In this document: positions 3,190 through 25,650 of the stretch, one piece after another | How positions within the stretch are numbered: position 1 is the stretch's first letter | Layout of the letters: every line of letters starts with the position of its first letter | Source: an uncultured Lachnospiraceae bacterium | Lineage (GTDB): Bacteria > Bacillota > Clostridia > Oscillospirales > CAG-272 | Length of the DNA stretch: 64,000 bases | NCBI GenBank assembly: GCA_964413365.1 | Contig: CAYPRM010000003.1 | Location: forward strand, 857-64,856 | Reading direction: 5' to 3' | Notes under the pieces: generated by a model | The model's database searches: none | Told to the model about the DNA's origin: nothing | The model's input: the letters and a program-made list of their open reading frames with translations, nothing else | Made by a program: the position numbers and the translations under genes

Positions 3190-3888
3190 ATGAGGTATAA
3201 GATCGCGATCTGCGATGATTCCGATACGGACAGACGCTATGTTTTGAATATGGTCGAGAGCTGGGCTGAGTCTGCCGCGCACAATGTGGATGTGAACACC
3301 TTCCCCTCCGCCGAGAGTTTTCTCTTTCACTATGAGGAGGAGAGCGATTATGACATTCTGCTTCTCGACATCGAAATGGGAGAGATGGACGGCGTAACTA
3401 TGGCAAAGAGAATTCGACATGCCAACGACACCGTGCAGATCGTTTTCATCACGGGCTATTCAGACTACATTTCCGAGGGGTACGAGGTTGCGGCTCTCCA
3501 TTATCTTATGAAACCCGTCAAGGAAGAAAAGCTCCGATCGGTGCTTGACCGTGCGGCGGAAAAGCTTGCTAAAAACGAGAAGGTATTGAACTTTGAGATC
3601 GGTAGCGAGATGGTGCGTGTGCCGATTTATCAGATCCGTTACGCTGATGTTCTCGGCAACTACGTTACCGTTCACGCTCTCTCTGACGTTACTGCGAAAA
3701 TGACCTTGGGCGAGCTTGAAAAGCAGCTTGACGAGCGATTTTATCGCGTGGGGCGTTCCACGATCGTAAATCTTACGCAGATCAGCCGTGTAACAAAGAC
3801 AGAGATCAGGCTGAGCGACGGAGCAGTCATTCCCCTCCCACGGGGAGCGTATGACGGTGTGAACCGTGCGATAATAAATATGAGGTAG
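3190..3888 (+). CDS. LytTR/AlgR-family response regulator
   Basis: 232 aa. The receiver domain shows ICDDS...LLLDIEMGEMDG and the C-terminal part is a LytTR DNA-binding domain (FYRVGRSTIVNL). Confidence 0.9.
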   Translation: MRYKIAICDDSDTDRRYVLNMVESWAESAAHNVDVNTFPSAESFLFHYEEESDYDILLLDIEMGEMDGVTMAKRIRHANDTVQIVFITGYSDYISEGYEVAALHYLMKPVKEEKLRSVLDRAAEKLAKNEKVLNFEIGSEMVRVPIYQIRYADVLGNYVTVHALSDVTAKMTLGELEKQLDERFYRVGRSTIVNLTQISRVTKTEIRLSDGAVIPLPRGAYDGVNRAIINMR

Positions 3889-3893
3889 CAAAT

Positions 3894-4556
3894 ATGGGAT
3901 TGTTTTCTAAGAAAATAGACAAGCAGATCGCCTCCTATCAGCACGAGCTGATAGAAACGCATTACCGTGAGGTCGATAATATGTACCGTCAGATTCGCGG
4001 TTGGCGACACGACTACCGCAATCACATTCAGACGATGAAGGCTTATGCGGCTGTCGGCGACCTTGATGCCATTAAGAATTATCTCGACCTGCTCGATAAG
4101 GATCTGACCACCGTTGACACTGTTATCAAGACGGGCAATCCTATGACGGATGCCATTCTGAACTCCAAAATTTCAATTGCAAGATCAAAGGGTATTGATG
4201 TTGTGGCGGATGCGCATATTCCCGTCAAGCTAAAGACCTCGGAGATCGACCTGTGCTGTATAATCGGTAATCTCTTTGACAATGCCATTGAGGCGAGTGT
4301 CAAGCTACCCGAGGATCAGCGTGTGATCCGTGTGTATATGGATATGAAAAATACCCAGCTCTACATTTCCTTCACAAATCTTACTGCCGAGAAGAAAATG
4401 AGCAAGGTGGGCAATATATTCCGCACTACAAAGGGCGACGGGCACGGCTTTGGGCTTGTTCGCATAGATGCGATCGTGGAAAGGCTCGACGGATACATCA
4501 GTCGCAATAGCGAGGACGGGGCGTTCACAACTGAAATATTGCTTCCGCAGGTGTGA
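3894..4556 (+). CDS. AgrC/HPK10-type GHKL histidine kinase core lacking any transmembrane sensor region
   Basis: 220 aa. H-box WRHDYRNHIQT, N-box GNLFDNAIEAS, G-box KGDGHGFGL. I see no hydrophobic segment in the translation. The gene starts 5 nt after the regulator gene. Confidence 0.8.
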   Translation: MGLFSKKIDKQIASYQHELIETHYREVDNMYRQIRGWRHDYRNHIQTMKAYAAVGDLDAIKNYLDLLDKDLTTVDTVIKTGNPMTDAILNSKISIARSKGIDVVADAHIPVKLKTSEIDLCCIIGNLFDNAIEASVKLPEDQRVIRVYMDMKNTQLYISFTNLTAEKKMSKVGNIFRTTKGDGHGFGLVRIDAIVERLDGYISRNSEDGAFTTEILLPQV

Positions 4557-4589
4557 AAATTTGCAATTCATCACCCCAAAATGACGATT

Positions 4590-4620
4590 CGTCCCCGAAA
4601 TAACACGGGGACGATTTTTT
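4590..4620 (+). terminator. intrinsic terminator or attenuator between kinase and ABC genes
   Basis: Stem cgtccccg (4590-4597) / cggggacg (4606-4613) followed by atttttt (4614-4620). Confidence 0.6.
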
Positions 4621-4655
4621 ATGATATGATATAAACAGAAAGGAAGGTGGTTTTT

Positions 4656-6488
4656 ATGCGAAGCAAGAAATCTCCAAAATCAAAATACAATATGCTACAA
4701 AACTCGGCATATATGATAAGGCTCGCGTGGACCTCGGGCGAGAAAAAGGTCATAGTGCTCGGCCTGCTCTCGACACTCACAGCGGTCGGGCTTAATCTTA
4801 TAAATCTGTACGTCTCTCCGACGATACTCGGCGCTGTGGAAAATCACGCATCCGTCGGCGAGCTCTTGATAACTGTAGCTGTATTTGTCGGTGCGCTGAT
4901 GCTCATGTCCGCCGCCTCTGCATACGTGAACACAAACACCTTGTACGGCAGGATCAGTGTACGCAGTGAGCTGATCACCCTGCTCAACAAAAAGGCGACT
5001 ACGACCTCGTATGTCAATGTCCACGATAAGAAATTCAATGATCTTACCGACAAGGCGCAAAATACTGTCAATTCAAATCTTGCCGCTACGGAGGCCATCT
5101 GGACGACGCTTACTAATCTTACGACCAACATTATCGGATTTTTAATATACACAGTCATGATGTCGTCCTTAAATCCCCTGCTCCTTGCGGTCGTACTTAT
5201 CACGACTGTTATATCCTACTTTATAAGCAATCATCTTAACGGATGGTTTTACCGTCATCTTGAGGAGGATATTGAGCATGTAAGGCATCTGTTTTACCTT
5301 GACAGGCGCACGAGCATGCTTGATATTGCAAAGGACATCCGCATCTTCGGTCTGCGTCCGTGGATCGAGGAGCTTTATGCAAAGGGTATGAACGCATATC
5401 TTGCGTTCCACAAGAGGGGTGAGACCAACATACTTTGGGCGGGAATCGCCGATCTTCTGCTCACCTTCCTGCGAAATGCCATCGCGTATGCATATCTTTT
5501 GGGGCTCGTTATCGCAGGCGGAATGGGCGTATCGGAATTTCTACTCTATTTCAGCGCGATCGGAGGATTTACCGCTTGGGTATCGGGTATACTTGGCGGA
5601 TTTAACACTCTGCACATTCAATCCCTCGACATCTCCATCGTCCGTGAGTGCATAGAATACCCCGAGCCTTTCAAGTTTGATGACGGTGAGCACATTTCGG
5701 TAGAGGCAGACAGGTTCTATGAGATAAGACTTGAAAATGTTTCTTACCGCTATCCGACATCCGATACCGACACGCTCAAAAACGTAAATCTCACGCTCCA
5801 TCCCGGGGAAAAGTTAGCAGTTGTCGGACTCAACGGTGCAGGCAAAACAACGCTCATCAAGCTTATCTGCGGATTTATTGATCCCACAGAGGGACGCGTG
5901 CTTCTTGACGGAAGGGATATCAGAGATTACAACCGCAGGGATTATTATAATATGTTCTCTGCCGTATTCCAGGATTTCTCACTCCTTGCCGGAACGATCG
6001 CAACGAACGTGGCGCAGGACAGCGTTGGCATTGATATGGCACGTGTCAAGGAAAGCGTAGAGAAAGCAGGACTCAGGAAGAAGATCGAAGGCTTGAAGGA
6101 CGGCTACGAGACATGCCTAAACCGAGAGGTATACGAGGATGCTATCCTCCTTTCGGGCGGTGAGACGCAGCGACTCATGCTTGCCCGCGCACTTTACAAA
6201 AACGCGCCTTTCATTGTTCTCGACGAGCCAACGGCGGCACTTGATCCTATCGCAGAGTCGGAAATGTACCAAAAGTACAATGAAATGACAAGTGGCAAAT
6301 CCTCAATTTATATCTCCCACCGCCTCGCATCAACACGGTTCTGCGACCGCATCATTATGATCGCAAATGGCGGAATTGCCGAGGAAGGCACGCACGCAGA
6401 GCTTCTCACGCTTGGTGGAATGTATGCGGAGCTATTTGAGATACAGAGCAAATACTACAAGGAGAGTGATAATAATGAATCAGTCTAA
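4656..6488 (+). CDS. ABC exporter half-transporter (N-terminal 6-TM permease plus C-terminal ATPase)
   Basis: Walker A GLNGAGKTT, signature LSGGETQR, Walker B FIVLDEPTAALD. The track start at 4647 is a GTG. The ATG at 4656, 8 nt after aaggaagg, is preferred. Confidence 0.9.
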   Translation: MRSKKSPKSKYNMLQNSAYMIRLAWTSGEKKVIVLGLLSTLTAVGLNLINLYVSPTILGAVENHASVGELLITVAVFVGALMLMSAASAYVNTNTLYGRISVRSELITLLNKKATTTSYVNVHDKKFNDLTDKAQNTVNSNLAATEAIWTTLTNLTTNIIGFLIYTVMMSSLNPLLLAVVLITTVISYFISNHLNGWFYRHLEEDIEHVRHLFYLDRRTSMLDIAKDIRIFGLRPWIEELYAKGMNAYLAFHKRGETNILWAGIADLLLTFLRNAIAYAYLLGLVIAGGMGVSEFLLYFSAIGGFTAWVSGILGGFNTLHIQSLDISIVRECIEYPEPFKFDDGEHISVEADRFYEIRLENVSYRYPTSDTDTLKNVNLTLHPGEKLAVVGLNGAGKTTLIKLICGFIDPTEGRVLLDGRDIRDYNRRDYYNMFSAVFQDFSLLAGTIATNVAQDSVGIDMARVKESVEKAGLRKKIEGLKDGYETCLNREVYEDAILLSGGETQRLMLARALYKNAPFIVLDEPTAALDPIAESEMYQKYNEMTSGKSSIYISHRLASTRFCDRIIMIANGGIAEEGTHAELLTLGGMYAELFEIQSKYYKESDNNESV

Positions 6489-13220: not shown

Positions 13221-14438
13221 TTACGCCTTCGGGACGAGTCCACGGTCGGTGGCGAGATCAGCAATGATCTCAAATGCGCCCTCATAGCGGAACTTGGTCG
13301 CTATTCTGTAAAGGCAGGGCGTATCCTCGAAGCCGTGGCGCTTCGTGAGCGCGCAGGGGTAACGGGAATCGACGTATTTATGGGGATCGGTAGCGAGATA
13401 GAGCATAACTCTTGAATTACGTATATCCATTCTCGCGTAGACCTCGGAATTGATGTGGAACACGGCGCACTGCTCGGAGATCTTGCACTTCATACCCGTA
13501 TAACCGAGAAGCACCTTGGATATAGCGTCATATCTCGTGCGGAGCAAGCCGTTTGCATCACCGTATCTCTTGGAGAAATTGGTGTCATCGTTGTCGTAAT
13601 TCTCCCAATCGACCTCAAGCTCATCATTCTTGTGCTGTACGGTCTCGCTCATAGCCTGCTTTGTCGTGTCGGGCTTGAGATCGACCACGGGCTCGGCTTC
13701 TCCAAGCTTGGTAAGACCGAGACGAAGATCCACGGGATCATCCGCACTTATTCCGTAGTGCGTTATCCTCTGGCGGTCAAACTCGAACTCGTGCTTCGAC
13801 GCTACGAGCAGAAATTTATTCATAATATCCCTATTGGATTCAAATTCAAAATCATAGCTTGTAATAAGATTTCCCCCCGACGAAAGGATCATAGTGCAGA
13901 CCTTGCGTCTTATGTGGAAGAAAACATAGTTTTCCTTGTGATCAAGCGTCTCGCAGAGGTACATACCGAATGGCTTTACACTCGATATCTCCGTGCCGAG
14001 CAGCTTTGCGATCGCAAGGAAGGTATCCACTATCGCCTTGGGCATAAAGTACGTGTTGTAGGTATAGCCAACCTCACGCTTGTAGGAATTAAATTCCGTA
14101 TAGAAATTGTCGTTATCCTTGTTCTTCATCTCCTTTTTATAGAGATTGTTTGCGTAGAACGAGAATTTTGCCGGGATAGAAATGCTGTTTCTGTACACTC
14201 CCTCGCATCTGAGAAGGAGGACTATCGAGGGCATAAAGAGGATCCCGAGAGGCTCAAGCTCATGCTTGATCCTATCGGCGATGGGTTCAACCTTGATAAA
14301 CGCCCCATCCTTTGTCGGATAATCCTCAAGCTCTATCATTATTTCCTTAGCCTCGGCTTTTTTCTTCGACGGGAAGAATATACGCAGATATCCACCGTCA
14401 AAATTGCAATATTCAAAAATACATTGATTCTGAGCCAT
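13221..14438 (-). CDS. hypothetical pilus-operon protein (405 aa) occupying the slot usually held by PilM
   Basis: Intact ORF with no signal peptide or TM segment visible, tightly packed between pilin genes. I recognised no motif with confidence. Confidence 0.5.
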   Translation of the reverse strand: MAQNQCIFEYCNFDGGYLRIFFPSKKKAEAKEIMIELEDYPTKDGAFIKVEPIADRIKHELEPLGILFMPSIVLLLRCEGVYRNSISIPAKFSFYANNLYKKEMKNKDNDNFYTEFNSYKREVGYTYNTYFMPKAIVDTFLAIAKLLGTEISSVKPFGMYLCETLDHKENYVFFHIRRKVCTMILSSGGNLITSYDFEFESNRDIMNKFLLVASKHEFEFDRQRITHYGISADDPVDLRLGLTKLGEAEPVVDLKPDTTKQAMSETVQHKNDELEVDWENYDNDDTNFSKRYGDANGLLRTRYDAISKVLLGYTGMKCKISEQCAVFHINSEVYARMDIRNSRVMLYLATDPHKYVDSRYPCALTKRHGFEDTPCLYRIATKFRYEGAFEIIADLATDRGLVPKA

Positions 14439-23010: not shown

Positions 23011-23898
23011 ATGGAATATTTCACACTAAACAACGACGTCAAAATGCCCGTTATCGGCTACGGCGTCTATCAGGTAACAAAGGATGAGTGCGAGAGATGC
23101 GTTCTCGACGCGCTGAGTGTCGGCTACCGAATGATCGACACAGCCCAGAGTTATTTTAACGAGGAGGAGGTCGGTCTTGCCATCGAAAAGAGCGGAATTC
23201 CGCGTGAGGAGATCTTCCTTACGACAAAGGTGTGGATCGAGCACTACGGCTACGACGAGTGCCGCGCGTCCGTCCTCGAATCAATGCGAAAGCTCCGCAC
23301 GGACTACCTTGATCTTTGCCTGCTACATCAGCCATTTTCGGATGTTTACGGAGCGTACCGCGCGCTTGAGGATCTCATGCAGGAGGGCAAACTGCGCGCC
23401 ATCGGAATATCAAATTTCTACCCCGACAGAATGGTGGATATTGCTTCCTTTGCGCGTGTCGTGCCTGCGGTCAATCAGATCGAGCTTCACCCACACAATC
23501 AGCAGTCCGAGGCTCTGGAATGGCACAAAAAATACGGTGTTCAGCCCGAGGCATGGGCTCCGCTCGGCGAGGGGCGAGGCGGTCTGCTCCAAGATCCTTC
23601 CCTGCTCTCCATCGGCAAGAAATACGGCAAAACTCCTGCGCAGGTCATTCTTCGCTGGCATATACAGCGTGGCGTCGCGGTCATTCCGAAGTCCACGCAC
23701 ATTGAGAGAATGAGGGAAAATCTCGATATTCTCGATTTCTCGCTTGCCCCCGAGGATATGGACGCCATCGCACGCCTCGAAAGGGGCAAGTCCTCCTTCT
23801 TCTCGCATAGAGAGCCTGCCATGGTCGAATGGTTCTGCAAAATGGTGGAGGAAAGAAAGAAAAATAACGACTGCACCAAGGAAAAGAAAAACTGGTAA
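23011..23898 (+). CDS. aldo/keto reductase (2,5-diketo-D-gluconate reductase-like)
   Basis: 295 aa. AKR motifs include GYRMIDTAQSY, LLHQP, GISNF and IPKSTHIERMREN. Confidence 0.9.
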   Translation: MEYFTLNNDVKMPVIGYGVYQVTKDECERCVLDALSVGYRMIDTAQSYFNEEEVGLAIEKSGIPREEIFLTTKVWIEHYGYDECRASVLESMRKLRTDYLDLCLLHQPFSDVYGAYRALEDLMQEGKLRAIGISNFYPDRMVDIASFARVVPAVNQIELHPHNQQSEALEWHKKYGVQPEAWAPLGEGRGGLLQDPSLLSIGKKYGKTPAQVILRWHIQRGVAVIPKSTHIERMRENLDILDFSLAPEDMDAIARLERGKSSFFSHREPAMVEWFCKMVEERKKNNDCTKEKKNW

Positions 23899-23907
23899 AA
23901 TATTGCT

Positions 23908-23944
23908 CATGTGCCGCTAAATGTCGGCACGTGGGCATTTTTTT
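23908..23944 (+). terminator. intrinsic terminator
   Basis: Stem catgtgccg (23908-23916) / cggcacgtg (23925-23933) followed by a T-run at 23938-23944. Confidence 0.7.
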
Positions 23945-23955
23945 ACAAAAACTCC

Positions 23956-23984
23956 TTTACAAATCGCAAAAAGCGTGGTATAAT
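23956..23984 (+). promoter_or_regulatory. sigma-70-type promoter driving the structured RNA and LRR gene
   Basis: TTTACA (23956-23961), 17 nt, then TATAAT (23979-23984). Confidence 0.65.
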
Positions 23985-23989
23985 TACAG

Positions 23990-24207
23990 TGCCAAACCAA
24001 CTGAATACTGATGCAAGGGCTATTTTTCTCTTTTTCAAGGGGAAAACCACCCTTTTATCGCCATACCCATATAAATTTGTAAAAATGCAAATTCCATCTG
24101 GTGTGGCATAGAGAGACTCTTGCACTTCAGTTGGTTTGGCGACTATCGGAGTTTGCGTTTTTGTGCGGTTACTTCGGTAGCCGCACTTTTATTATATTTA
24201 TTTTTTT
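23990..24207 (+). ncRNA. unclassified structured RNA (candidate cis-regulatory leader or small RNA) ending in a UUCG-loop terminator
   Basis: - A perfect 15-bp closing helix pairs gccaaaccaactgaa (23991-24005) with ttcagttggtttggc (24126-24140).
- Nested helices: tgcaag/cttgca (24012-17 / 24119-24), tctct/agaga, aaggg/ccctt, gccatacc/ggtgtggc and aatttg/caaatt.
- A terminator follows: gtgcggttac-ttcg-gtagccgcac (24163-24186) plus a T-run. Then come the RBS aggagg (24208-13) and the ATG at 24221. Confidence 0.4.
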
Positions 24208-24220
24208 AGGAGGTCATTTT

Positions 24221-25558
24221 ATGTATGACAATGTTGGAAGTAAACTAAAAACATTAGCACAAATAAGTGCAATTTGCGGAATTGTAGGCTCGGTAATATG
24301 CGGTTTTATAAGCGGCAATTTTTTGCTTGGGCTGCTAATCATCGTGGTAGGATCGCTGGTCAGTTGGCTATCATCACTTACGCTCTACGCCTTTGGTGAG
24401 ATGCACGAGTATCTTGGAGCTATATGTGGGCATTGTAAAAACGCTACAAAGGTAGTTAGAGATAATAACAAATCATCGGCAAACACAACAAGTTTCAATG
24501 CCAAAACGAGTACAGGAAATAAAGATTCCAAAAATTATAGTGATCAAACTAAAATAACCATTTCAAGCGGCTTAACGGCTATAGGATCTGGTGCCTTCGC
24601 TCATCGCACATCACTGACGAGCGTAACTATTCCCAACAGCGTAACGAGTATAGGTAACGATGCGTTCTATAATTGCAAATCGCTGGAGGATGTTTATTAT
24701 CAAGGGACTCTTGAAGATTGGTGTAAGATCAAATTTGATAACTACGGCTCCAATCCGTGTTATAATGGAGCGAATCTGTATATCAGCGGTGAACTTCTCA
24801 CAAATGTGGTTGTTCCAAATAGCGTAACGAGTATAGGCAAATTTACGTTCTCTGGCTGCACCTCGTTGATGAGCGTAACTATCCCCGACAGCGTAACGAG
24901 TATAGGCTATGGGACGTTCTATAATTGCACCTCGCTGACGAGCGTAACTCTCCCTGACAGCGTAACGAGTATAAGCAGTTCTGCGTTCTATAAGTGCACC
25001 TCGCTGACGAGCGTAACTATCGGTGATAGCGTAACGAGCATAGGCGAAGATGCGTTCCGTAGTTGCACCTCGCTGACGAGCGCAACTGTACCCGACAGCG
25101 TAACGAGCATAGGCAATAGTGTGTTCTCTGGTTGTACCTCTTTGGAATACAACGAGTACGATAATGCATATTATCTCGGCAACAGCAGTAACCCTTATGT
25201 GGTTTTGGTGAAAGCTAAAAGTACTGATATAACGAGCTGCGATATTAACTCAAATACAAAATTTATTCACAGCTCTGCGTTCTATAATTGCACATCGCTG
25301 ACGAGCGTAACTATCCCCGAGAGCGTAACAAGTATAGACGATGAGACGTTCCATGGTTGTACCTCGCTATCGAGCGTAACTATCCCCGACAGCATAACGA
25401 GTATAGGCCAATTTGCGTTTTATGATTGCACCTCACTGACGGAGATACACTATAACGGTACAAAAGTGCAGTGGAATTCTATTAGCAAAGACTCTTATTG
25501 GAATAGCAACACTGGAAAGTACACAGTTTACTGCACTGACGGAGAGATCGCGAAATAA
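24221..25558 (+). CDS. BspA-type leucine-rich-repeat surface protein with N-terminal membrane anchor
   Basis: About 445 aa from the ATG at 24221, preceded by aggagg. Two N-terminal TM helices are followed by roughly 12 repeats of the 22-23-aa unit SVTSIGxxAFxxCTSLTSVTIPD. The track start at 24101 lies inside the upstream RNA structure. Confidence 0.85.
   Translation: MYDNVGSKLKTLAQISAICGIVGSVICGFISGNFLLGLLIIVVGSLVSWLSSLTLYAFGEMHEYLGAICGHCKNATKVVRDNNKSSANTTSFNAKTSTGNKDSKNYSDQTKITISSGLTAIGSGAFAHRTSLTSVTIPNSVTSIGNDAFYNCKSLEDVYYQGTLEDWCKIKFDNYGSNPCYNGANLYISGELLTNVVVPNSVTSIGKFTFSGCTSLMSVTIPDSVTSIGYGTFYNCTSLTSVTLPDSVTSISSSAFYKCTSLTSVTIGDSVTSIGEDAFRSCTSLTSATVPDSVTSIGNSVFSGCTSLEYNEYDNAYYLGNSSNPYVVLVKAKSTDITSCDINSNTKFIHSSAFYNCTSLTSVTIPESVTSIDDETFHGCTSLSSVTIPDSITSIGQFAFYDCTSLTEIHYNGTKVQWNSISKDSYWNSNTGKYTVYCTDGEIAK
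24560..25460 (+). repeat. tandem coding repeats of about 66-69 bp (LRR units)
   Basis: The near-identical DNA stretch cacctcgctgacgagcgtaactatccccgacagcgtaacgagtataggc recurs many times in frame. Confidence 0.85.
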
Positions 25559-25597
25559 AAGCATTAGTTTACTTTACTTCACAATTCAATACTATCA

Positions 25598-25642
25598 ACA
25601 AATCAAAATACCCGAGGCGTTGCCTCGGGTATTTTGATTTGT
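25598..25642. terminator. bidirectional intrinsic terminator between convergent operons
   Basis: Long perfect palindrome acaaatcaaaatacccgaggc-gt-tgcctcgggtattttgatttgt. Confidence 0.85.
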
Positions 25643-25650
25643 ATTTGATT

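Follow-up and report, generated by a model that had tools for sequence, protein, structure and literature searches.

The window, by which we mean the whole stretch of 64,000 nucleotides from an uncultured Lachnospiraceae bacterium that was analyzed, carries at positions 23956-24220 a highly structured segment between a promoter and the gene for a surface protein with BspA-like LRR repeats. This locus raises the question of whether the segment is a functional RNA, to which class such an RNA would belong, and what it does for the gene behind it. A sequence-only reading had described it as an RNA of about 200 nt that could be a riboswitch, an attenuator or an independent 6S-like RNA. Our analysis demonstrates that a structured RNA of ~205 nt is real and previously unclassified, and the segment is best explained as a self-contained transcription unit that represents a new RNA family. 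As to its function, we tentatively favor, at a confidence somewhat short of probable, a cis-acting leader or attenuator RNA of mobile-element cargo genes in which an antiterminator formed by the linker and the terminator apex would control read-through, presumably in response to a signal.

The element in the window

The element opens with a sigma-70 promoter on the + strand (23956-23984), composed of TTTACA (23956-23961), a 17-nt spacer and TATAAT (23979-23984). The promoter has 11 of 12 consensus matches as well as an extended -10 TG at 23976-23977. From this sequence transcription is predicted to start at ~23990-23992, which would place the 5' end of the RNA inside the closing helix P1. In the predicted fold the 5' strand of P1 (23990-24005) pairs with its 3' strand (24126-24141); the 15-nt arms 23991-24005 and 24126-24140 are 100% complementary and enclose 120 nt, and a U.G pair between 23990 and 24141 lengthens the helix. 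Both this promoter and the perfect 15-bp closing helix had been located correctly by the sequence-only reading, and the nested interior helices that it had drawn are all present in the MFE fold. P2 pairs tgcaaggg (24012-24019) with ctcttgca (24117-24124) and is continued by a window-specific ucucu/agaga extension (~24026-24032 with 24110-24116), so that its 5' strand spans 24012-24032 and its 3' strand, agagaga...cucuugca, spans 24110-24124. A P3 hairpin (24037-24058) follows, in which aaggg (24037-24041) and ccctt (24050-24054) enclose eight nucleotides ahead of a conserved U-rich junction, UUUUAU. The long P4 hairpin (24060-24107) is built on the base gccauacc/gguguggc (24060-24067 with 24100-24107), contains internal loops, and ends in the apex AAUUUG-UAAAAAUG-CAAAUUCC, where aatttg pairs with caaatt (~24074-24080 with 24087-24093).

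Downstream of the core lies the linker ACUAUCGGAGUUUGCGUUUUU (24142-24162), followed by an intrinsic terminator hairpin of 10 bp with a UUCG loop (24163-24186) that begins 22 nt past the closing helix and contains one G.U pair that marks the + strand. A U-rich tract (24187-24207) leads directly to an RBS, AGGAGG at 24208-24213, and to the ATG at 24221-24223, which leaves too little space between the terminator and the start codon for a separate promoter. The gene behind it (24221-25558, + strand) encodes a protein of 445 aa that combines a two-helix membrane domain at its N-terminus with BspA-type LRR repeats (LRR_5 match, 1e-76). The terminator, its distance from the closing helix, the RBS behind the U-rich tract and the nature of the downstream gene agree with what had been proposed from the letters of this region.

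The description of the RNA as highly structured is borne out by its folding energy. The MFE of 23990-24141 is -83.1 kcal/mol as compared to -50.8 +/- 4.0 kcal/mol in 200 dinucleotide shuffles (z = -8.08), none of which was as stable as the window sequence. The impression that the domain fits no known class also holds against the Rfam 15 covariance models. The whole window gave no match at gathering thresholds, the best sub-threshold match on 23850-24300 is a terminator-driven one to the L20 leader (22 bits versus 58.7), and a search of the region at E <= 10 did not assign a family. Among 14 homologous loci there was likewise no match on the element, with only tRNAs and a T-box found elsewhere.

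The RNA family and its cargo genes

Gut and rumen metagenomes together with phage contigs yield at least 44 distinct members of the family, and a covariance model made from other members alone recovers the window at 45.1 bits with E ~1e-5 (7.6e-6; 1.2e-5). Covariation in homologues, which the sequence-only reading had named as its decisive test, is found in every helix with the sole exception of the ucucu/agaga extension. Across the family core 95.3% of cells pair, while slid controls reach 38-47%, and compensatory (double) changes occur in 30 of 39 core pairs, a result obtained in 0 of 500 shuffles; the covarying structured domain expected of a riboswitch is consequently present. P1 is 99% paired with compensatory changes in 9 of 11 pairs, and it is 16-20 bp long and very stable in the family, with a sequence that is not conserved. 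Compensatory changes are present in all eight pairs of P2 and in all ten pairs at the base of P4. By sequence, the P3 region GGG...CCCUUUU is nearly invariant and the P4 apex is the most conserved part of the core, also in those members that were recovered without the apex as bait. Selection acts on one strand. The sense strand folds more stably than the antisense strand in 39 of 41 family sequences (mean -58.1 versus -48.7 kcal/mol, p = 5e-8), and conserved U.G pairs are numerous on it.

The order of parts seen in the window (promoter, three-way-junction core, linker, UUCG-capped terminator, RBS) is conserved across family members, as the earlier proposal of a promoter-domain-terminator-RBS layout would have it. 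Nearly all of 33 distinct members have a TTGAnA-17-TGnTATA(C/A)T promoter at a fixed distance from P1, with the -10 hexamer at the modal offset in 26 of the 33 distinct upstream regions and the extended -10 promoter ending ~6 nt short of the closing helix. The linker CGGAGUUUGCGUUUU hardly varies across 29 distinct 3' modules, and the terminator is 98% paired with covariation (0/500 shuffles match the observed score). This 3' module is the most sequence-conserved part of the family. For example, it shows 87% identity to a phage over 53 nt where the P1 sequences are unrelated. One locus, L143, holds a second, divergent 3' module.

Approximately 45 of 54 loci have a co-oriented ORF with an RBS some 5-35 nt past the U-tract and no promoter between. 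The genes downstream of the homologues are mobile-element cargo of mixed function. At least six unrelated cargo types occur, which include EcoRI-type, Dam-type and type-I-like methylases (three families), a GmrSD/HNH nuclease, BspA LRR proteins, lipoproteins, small membrane proteins and an HTH protein. These gene sets are not functionally coherent, and such heterogeneity argues against a metabolite signal that is tied to gene function. For the cargo protein in the window, the N-terminal 65 aa are homologous to cargo behind the RNAs of L128, L142 and L224 and the LRR part is homologous to the cargo of L127; an exact look-up of the window LRR protein found it not on record. A regulator specific for methylases was rejected, as the RNA is missing at 80 phage loci whose EcoRI-type methylases are 41-60% identical; a first single-sequence search on the methylase idea also gave no matches.

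Family loci lie in small islands, down to 2.6 kb between host genes, or beside serine recombinases. Members adjoin a tRNA or host genes on one side, or directly follow serine recombinase genes. In related Clostridia, 80 loci that hold an orthologue of the upstream aldo-keto reductase have no copy of the element, and a flavoprotein gene there comes directly after the reductase. The element, which is single-copy in the window, and its LRR gene are therefore a lineage-specific insertion. The plasmid collection gave no match, and a two-arm P1 pattern was not found in viral contigs. Three Logan contigs from the same species match the window exactly, two of them ending at 24155 and one at 24076. A recombination junction at 24155 is a less likely reason than shared k-mers, since the near-invariant linker makes the next k-mers common to other family members.

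Proposed control of read-through and competing readings

The 3' module contains a candidate antiterminator. Linker positions 24143-24152 (CUAUCGGAGU, the proposed 5' strand) are complementary to the terminator apex at 24171-24180 (ACUUCGGUAG, the proposed 3' strand), and pairing between linker and apex reaches 89% in the family versus 22-65% when slid. Compensatory changes are seen as A-U to G-C in the L109/L111 lineage and as U-A to C-G in the divergent 3' module of L143; this covariation is weak (2-3 pairs, 3-9 cells) because the linker and the terminator apex are almost invariant. A truncated window transcript folds into the antiterminator helix, and in the isolated 3' segment of the window an extended antiterminator (-22.1 kcal/mol) is more stable than the terminator (-17.5 kcal/mol). 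The extended form borrows the last bases of P1 and competes with its last 3 bp. In ~8 of 37 members the antiterminator is already present in the full-length MFE fold. The equilibrium ensemble of the window favors the terminator with ~98% probability, and therefore any switching would be kinetic or factor-driven.

According to the leader or attenuator reading, transcription from the strong sigma-70 promoter would begin at the first nucleotides of the 16-bp closing helix, and the transcript would fold into a three-way junction of P1-P2, the P3 hairpin and the long P4 hairpin with its conserved apex. The near-invariant linker, the strong intrinsic terminator and the RBS of the cargo gene would then follow at once, such that only polymerases passing the terminator would express the cargo gene, which in the window is the LRR surface protein. 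Read-through would depend on an alternative helix between CUAUCGGAGU and ACUUCGGUAG that arises ahead of transcription of the 3' half of the terminator, and the balance between antiterminator and terminator may be tipped by the structured core itself or by a factor that binds the core. The earlier proposal of a riboswitch or attenuator is upheld as to its layout and the covariation of its paired regions, and its attenuator form gains a candidate antiterminator. A metabolite riboswitch is somewhat disfavored by the heterogeneous cargo, the stable closing helix of 16-20 bp and the methylase loci that lack the RNA. Against the leader or attenuator reading, P1 is too long and stable for a classical riboswitch P1, and the strong conservation of the 3' module could instead mean a protein site or a trans-acting seed. 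A core-linker pairing of AAUUCC (24090-24095) with GGAGUU was set aside as an idea only, being lost in L109/L111, and a leader peptide was rejected as the small ORF GUG-CGG-UUA-CUU-CGG-UAG within the terminator is not conserved.

A bolder form of the leader or attenuator reading, which we consider doubtful, would make the three-way-junction core a sensor, and the RNA a new kind of switch, riboswitch-like or protein-responsive, that moves along with mobile DNA. Such a switch would gate restriction-modification, methylase and surface-protein cargo in gut Clostridia on a signal of host or element state, and its output would run through a portable module of linker and terminator, which is also used by at least one other leader of unrelated kind (the second module at L143).

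It is unlikely that the RNA is an independent trans-acting sRNA of ~205 nt that ends at the terminator, with the single-stranded linker CGGAGUUUGCGUUUUU or the apex loop as its seed or protein site and with the cargo dependent on leaky read-through. Its own strong promoter and strong terminator would suit such an sRNA, as would the preference for termination at equilibrium and the degree to which the 3' module is conserved, which one would expect of a seed or protein site more than of an expression platform. However, the sRNA reading does not readily explain why so many loci have an RBS-bearing ORF of unrelated cargo just past the U-tract, unless read-through is the point, and the single copy in the window also counts against it.

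Less likely again is a processive antitermination RNA, either factor-independent or factor-assisted, in the manner of HK022 put, the Bacillus EAR element, Tn916 canT and pLS20 conAn2. In that case the folded RNA would stay with polymerase and resist adjacent and later terminators, so that only transcripts from its own promoter would reach the cargo while read-through from the host or a recombinase gene is blocked. A promoter-proximal structured RNA followed by terminators of the same operon is indeed the layout that is found, and the arrangement of promoter, RNA, terminator and genes at the edge of an element parallels Tn916 canT (PMC11658703). The positions of members beside tRNA or host genes, or directly behind serine recombinase genes, fit this reading, and a contact with polymerase or a protein would account well for the invariant nucleotides of the apex loop and the junction. 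On the other hand, there is no similarity to Rfam antitermination RNAs, and the complementarity of linker and terminator apex is left unexplained. Additionally, an upstream terminator already insulates several members (for example the AKR terminator at 23904-23937 in the window), and an extra terminator is therefore not needed for insulation.

A constitutive portable expression cassette, in which the RNA is a 5' stabilizer whose terminal helix blocks RNase J or pyrophosphohydrolase and a leaky terminator sets a low, context-independent level with no signal, is quite improbable. P1 does begin at the predicted +1 across members, the cargo genes are many and unrelated on islands as small as 2.6 kb, and in the otherwise identical phages of L109 and L111 the cargo has been swapped behind the same RNA. 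However, a simple 5' hairpin would be enough for stabilization, and the conserved 150-nt three-way junction, the invariant loop and junction nucleotides and the linker indicate a more specific interaction.

Very little likelihood is left for an invertible DNA switch for phase variation, as in C. difficile cwpV and flgB, in which the P1 arms would be recombinase repeats and the 120-bp interior would flip to turn the gene on or off. The perfect 15-bp inverted repeats 120 bp apart bring such a switch to mind, as do surface proteins and methylases, which are classic phase-variable genes. Two contigs of separate assemblies, L085 and L203, carry the entire core inverted relative to the promoter, linker and terminator, as evidenced by nhmmer hits on both strands, a covariance model hit of 44 bits on the opposite strand, and reverse-complement alignments that score ~2x the forward ones. 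A large serine recombinase gene lies directly upstream at L085, and small and large serine recombinases are close to several members. Nevertheless, this is one inverted lineage of ~44, and the others, several of them sampled in 2-9 independent assemblies, keep a single orientation. The compensatory changes in P2 and P4 and the sense G.U bias imply selection on the single-stranded fold of one strand, for which recombination sites alone are insufficient. Furthermore, P1 is not conserved in sequence as a recombinase site would be, and tblastn with three queries detected no serine recombinase homologue in the 64-kb window.

The suggestion of a rod-like, 6S-like RNA, which would imitate an open promoter and so sequester the RNA polymerase holoenzyme, was prompted by the ~200 nt size and long closing helix. 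It is not supported and already contradicted, with next to no probability left to it. The 6S models give no match even at E <= 10, and both the MFE and the consensus structures are three-way junctions that lack a central bubble. Furthermore, 6S is a core gene, whereas the present RNA shows no synteny in 80 related genomes and is joined to a cargo ORF on mobile DNA.

Should the leader or attenuator reading be right, the family would be a regulatory RNA that is widespread but not yet catalogued, and that is specific to the mobile elements and phages of Clostridia from gut and rumen. A portable promoter-terminator-fused unit would then control genes of host-phage conflict (methylases, the GmrSD/HNH nuclease) as well as cell-surface genes (BspA-type LRR proteins, lipoproteins), so that defense and surface genes gained by horizontal transfer would be subject to an additional, RNA-based level of control in a group of organisms with few characterized regulators. 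The family is defined well enough for deposition, with an alignment, a consensus structure and more than 40 sequences, and the RNA, at ~205 nt, is compact enough to be tested directly in biochemical assays. In addition, the conserved module of linker and terminator may serve as an engineering part for Clostridia.

Comparison with known systems

Several known elements were compared and rejected. The sequence GCCAAAC/GTTTGGC is one position off the integron attC motif RYYYAAC/GTTRRRY and other members have GTCACAC/GTGTGAC; moreover, the element lies upstream of genes with its own promoter and its sense strand is selected, while in attC the bottom strand folds downstream of promoterless cassettes. 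A retron msr-msd has no counterpart here, as there is no reverse transcriptase and a terminator intervenes, and a TnpB/IscB guide RNA is rejected as there is neither a nuclease gene nor a variable guide. CUGAAUA is not the CUGAUGA of a hammerhead. A Frpo-type single-strand promoter was dropped because here it is the coding rather than the template strand that folds, and Y RNA and tracrRNA were considered and dropped as well.

The element resembles 6S RNA in length and in its long terminal helix. It differs in having a three-way junction rather than a rod with a central bubble, in not being a core gene, and in its cis-linked ORF. With cwpV-type switches of C. difficile it shares inverted repeats around a segment of 120-200 bp that connects a promoter to a surface-protein gene, and one lineage (L085/L203) carries the segment flipped. 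In contrast to those switches, its interior helices covary, its orientation is uniform within the sampled lineages, its repeat sequence is not conserved and tblastn detected no serine recombinase homologue in the window.

The EGeRS1 sequences of pLS20-family plasmids are conserved structured sequences upstream of variable establishment and anti-restriction operons, and they block read-through from upstream (PMC8708921). The likeness is that of one conserved structured module set just ahead of the RBS in a variety of accessory or anti-restriction operons of a mobile element (PMC8708921). However, EGeRS1 is a GC-rich sequence of 420-750 bp that has no constitutive sigma-A promoter and may act in the form of single-stranded DNA, whereas the present element is ~205 nt with a canonical promoter and terminator and with selection on the sense (RNA) strand. 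Another comparison is with canT of Tn916, a cis-acting, orientation-specific RNA that overrides an insulating terminator (PMC11658703). Both are structured, orientation-specific RNAs of mobile elements located between a promoter and a guarding terminator near the element edge (PMC11658703). They differ in that canT is ~450 nt and at the opposite end of its element from its terminator, whereas here the terminator is fused to the RNA via a conserved linker. A further difference is that conAn requires a protein partner. No similarity to antitermination RNAs in Rfam was found by sequence or model, and canT and conAn2 were compared by description.

The attenuating leaders and riboswitches of Firmicutes share several features with the present element, which are a promoter-proximal, conserved and covarying structured domain, an intrinsic terminator immediately ahead of the RBS, a stretch before this terminator whose sequence can pair with a portion of the terminator, and an extended antiterminator that shares bases with the 3' end of P1. 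The element departs from them in having no Rfam class, in a P1 of 16-20 bp that starts at +1, in an expression platform that is more conserved in sequence than the helices of the 'aptamer', and in downstream genes that are unrelated mobile cargo rather than members of one pathway.

A structured RNA upstream of the LRR gene and its relatives

The sequence-only reading placed a highly structured, unclassified RNA between a strong promoter and the LRR gene, and all of the features that it listed for 23956-24223 are present in the window. A promoter scan finds the sigma-70 type promoter TTTACA-17-TATAAT with an upstream TG (23956-23984, + strand, 11 of 12 consensus positions), and a repeat finder returns the arms of the closing helix P1 (23991-24005 with 24126-24140, + strand) as 15 nt that are 100% complementary and 120 nt apart. 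The promoter/terminator scan locates a UUCG-capped 10-bp terminator (24163-24186, + strand), after which the RBS AGGAGG (24208-24213, + strand) precedes the ATG at 24221 of an ORF encoding a 445-aa BspA-type LRR protein with an N-terminal membrane domain. The space between the U-tract and this ORF is too small for a promoter. Folding of 23985-24215 (+ strand) gives an MFE of -83.1 kcal/mol versus -50.8 +/- 4.0 for 200 dinucleotide shuffles (z = -8.1, 0 of 200 as stable), and each interior helix previously picked out by eye is recovered in the MFE structure.

The RNA had also been said to belong to no recognizable class, and no known family was matched: Rfam 15 gave zero matches to the whole window at gathering thresholds and zero matches on the element in 14 homologous loci, while a search of 23850-24300 at E <= 10 returned the L20 leader alone (22 bits, driven by the terminator). 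Full-text literature searches found no description of the element.

The aldo-keto reductase upstream of the element has orthologues in MAGs of Oscillospiraceae, Lachnospiraceae and other Clostridia (64-82% identity), but a copy of the RNA is absent from all 80 of the closest such loci. In the nearest relatives inspected (L004-L015) a flavoprotein-like gene lies directly after the reductase gene, so that the element plus the LRR gene is a 1.7-kb lineage-specific insertion, in which tblastn detects no serine recombinase homologue. At 23899-25650 the window has a terminator (23904-23937) first, then the RNA and then the LRR gene, in place of the direct flavoprotein neighbour seen in L004-L015. 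The first lead to relatives came from blastn, in which the linker-terminator region matched the human-gut phage MT835503 (87% over 53 nt), whose locus has the same architecture and a closing helix that is wholly different in sequence yet still complementary. More members came from pattern scans of viral contigs using the conserved linker and P4 apex, and from an apex-motif scan of metagenome contigs that sets a lower bound among the matches listed; nhmmer on the fetched loci then gave at least 37 unique full-length members. As the apex was the bait in the metagenome scan its invariance there is partly built in; the same apex is present in MT835503, L085 and L090, which were recruited through the 3' module alone. 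The Logan contigs L001, L002 and L003, assembled from different samples, match the window exactly but break off within the element or just past it (at 24076 or 24155), likely because near-invariant linker k-mers are common to other family copies in those metagenomes.

A three-way junction is the common fold of every one of the 37 full-length members folded individually, and the RNAalifold consensus for a subgroup of 13 sequences contains P1, P2 and P3, the two parts of P4 and the terminator. A core covariance model built from this subgroup with the window sequence left out (R1) gives 50 matches on the fetched loci, at least 44 of them distinct, and recovers the window at 23988-24143 (45.1 bits, E = 7.6e-6), with no second match in the window or its 80 syntenic loci. 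The paired regions are conserved and covary in homologues, with standard pairs in 95.3% of 1610 cells and both-sided changes at 30 of 39 pairs; fitting an alignment to a model biases these values toward the structure, but the margin is large nonetheless, since 0 of 500 column shuffles reach them and sliding the partners by 1-3 columns lowers pairing to 38-47%. Compensatory P1 variants are visible by eye (GCCAAAC/GUUUGGC, GUCACAC/GUGUGAC, GCGAAAC/GUUUCGC, GCUACAC/GUGUAGC, GGCGUAC/GUACGCC). These sequences form a genuine, conserved, uncatalogued family of structured RNA; the copy in the window (23990-24195) is divergent but otherwise typical of it.

Cargo genes and mobile context

A co-oriented ORF with an RBS follows ~5-35 nt past the U-tract in ~45 of 54 loci. 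In at least 9 loci this cargo is an EcoRI-type adenine methylase with a GmrSD_N + HNH protein encoded behind it. Other loci encode D12 methylases of the Dam class, an N6_Mtase fused to a specificity protein, lipoproteins, a membrane protein with a zinc ribbon, and BspA LRR proteins (the window and L127). A family of small two-helix membrane proteins also occurs as cargo, and its N-terminal part shows homology to residues 1-65 of the window LRR protein. Two phage contigs that are otherwise 99.8-100% identical, L109 and L111, carry different cargo behind the same RNA, and 80 phage loci with EcoRI-type methylases (41-60% identical) have no RNA. The RNA thus goes with a group of mobile elements and not with a gene family. 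L109 (8419-9309) and L111 (5972-13839) diverge just past the element terminator and rejoin ~0.9 kb and ~7.9 kb later, respectively, differing already in the linker; the L111 stretch contains, in the opposite orientation, a gene for a polyvalent protein of 2687 aa. This site is a hot spot for cargo replacement or deletion at the element.

In L085, L128 and L175 the element is preceded, at a distance of 94-289 nt, by the end of a large serine recombinase gene (Resolvase + Recombinase + Zn ribbon + DUF4368), and one of the same type lies ~2 kb upstream in L159. The cassette forms a 2.6-kb island among host genes in L199 (mrp / RNA-methylase-nuclease / dnaG-rpoD) and adjoins tRNA genes in L084 (91-162) and L146 (624-904, - strand), 170-240 nt upstream of the element promoter, which would fit a cassette marking the border of an element that has integrated at a tRNA locus, or tRNA genes carried by a phage. 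A T-box leader ~450 nt upstream of the L196 member (13290-13560, - strand, 122 bits) shows a bacterial chromosome context. In L220 (384-1466), L143 and L178 a WYL + WCX regulator gene, of a type linked to defence islands, is divergent 43-115 nt upstream of the element promoter, with a 195-aa resolvase/invertase-type serine recombinase nearby; the regulator is a candidate protein partner or promoter regulator.

Coding strand and the 3' module

The promoter-to-terminator strand has many conserved U.G and G.U pairs (one apex pair is U.G in 43 of 44 sequences), and in 39 of 41 sequences the sense core folds more stably than the reverse complement does (mean -58.1 versus -48.7 kcal/mol; Wilcoxon p = 5e-8). 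A promoter of the form TTGAnA-17-TGnTATA(C/A)T stands at a fixed distance in almost all of 33 distinct upstream regions, and a covarying intrinsic terminator lies downstream of the core in all members. Together these observations point to a transcribed RNA and not a DNA-level site. Across the family the -10 hexamer ends ~6 nt upstream of the first P1 pair, placing the predicted transcript 5' end inside P1.

Sequence conservation is highest in the linker GCGAC-N3-CGGAGUUUGCGUUUU and the terminator GUGCG...ACUUCGGU...CGCAC-U7. In the window, linker positions 24143-24152 (CUAUCGGAGU) are complementary to the terminator upper stem and loop at 24171-24180 (ACUUCGGUAG), and this candidate antiterminator is 89% paired over 29 distinct modules as opposed to 22-65% when slid. 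Its covariation is limited because both sides are nearly invariant (A-U to G-C in L109/L111 and G.U to G-C in L237/L149; 3-9 cells in total); a divergent module copy in L143 keeps the pairing with a U-A to C-G change. The window terminator alone has -17.5 kcal/mol and the 10-bp antiterminator -10.7 kcal/mol, while the isolated 3' segment prefers an extended antiterminator (-22.1 kcal/mol) that takes in GCG from the very end of the P1 3' strand. A window transcript ending before the 3' half of the terminator is computed to fold into the antiterminator, the terminator has ~98% probability in the full-length equilibrium ensemble, and the full-length MFE already includes the antiterminator in ~8 of 37 members. 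From these folds we infer a design that would be compatible with attenuation under kinetic control or dependent on a factor.

The sequence AAUUCC (24090-24095), invariant in the 3' half of the P4 apex, is also complementary to linker GGAGUU (24148-24153). In L172 (GGAAUU) this pairing is improved and the antiterminator weakened, with the opposite in L109/L111, and a three-way competition is possible. A second linker-terminator module in L143 (600-860, - strand), 2.9 kb downstream of the first and before a lipoprotein gene, has a non-homologous leader with closing helix UGCGGCACAGC/GUUGUGUCGCA (z = -4.9), which suggests that the 3' module is portable and serves more than one leader type. A methylase-linked subgroup (L084:545-560, L146, L149, L185, L237, L170) has a conserved motif (A)AACGGUGCGAC between U-tract and methylase RBS that contains a repeat of the terminator's 5'-strand GUGCG and, once polymerase has read through, might base-pair with CGCAC. 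Outside any family member, the apex sequence TTTGTAAAAAATGCAAATTCC occurs in the phage contig L107 (9890-9990) immediately 5' of a TTGACA-17-TATATT promoter flanked by the palindromes GTGCAAAAATAATGCAC / GTGCAAGTTAATTGCAC, which may reflect chance or a common protein-binding site.

Regulatory readings and known analogues

A cis-acting leader controlling read-through best explains the element, because promoter, RNA, terminator and RBS are repeatedly and tightly fused to unrelated ORFs. We tentatively favour an attenuator in which the linker would pair with the terminator apex as an antiterminator and the core would act as sensor or binding platform, a predicted function. Of the riboswitch or attenuator layout originally proposed, the attenuator is plausible and has gained a concrete candidate antiterminator. 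A trans-acting small RNA, with the conserved linker as seed or protein site, is unlikely; processive antitermination of the put/canT kind is somewhat less likely, and a constitutive 5' stabiliser or expression cassette is slightly less probable again.

Very improbable is an invertible DNA switch (phase variation), which is kept alive by one lineage. In L085 (IMG/VR; 3640-3900, - strand) and L203 (a different metagenome; 853-1060) the whole ~150-nt core is on the opposite strand while promoter, linker and terminator are as usual, as inversion between the P1 arms would give, and in L085 a gene for a large serine recombinase of 529 aa (3953-5542) immediately precedes the element. The nhmmer hits to the 3' module and to the core fall on opposite strands, R1 matches the inverted core on the opposite strand (44 bits), and its reverse complement aligns about twice as well as the forward sequence to every other member. 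However, this is one flipped lineage in ~44, orientation is constant within every repeatedly sampled lineage, the interior helices covary on one strand, and tblastn with three serine recombinase queries found no homologue in the 64-kb window. The lineage may have become fixed after a hairpin-mediated inversion, or may represent the switched-off state. The 6S-like RNA once offered as an alternative is rejected, its probability being negligible.

Returning to the cis-acting leader, several systems of analogous function are known from Gram-positive mobile elements. Although none of them matches the present element, canT in Tn916 (PMC11658703), EGeRS1 in pLS20 (PMC8708921), Aca-bound 5'-UTR motifs (PMC13551039) and conAn are its functional analogues.
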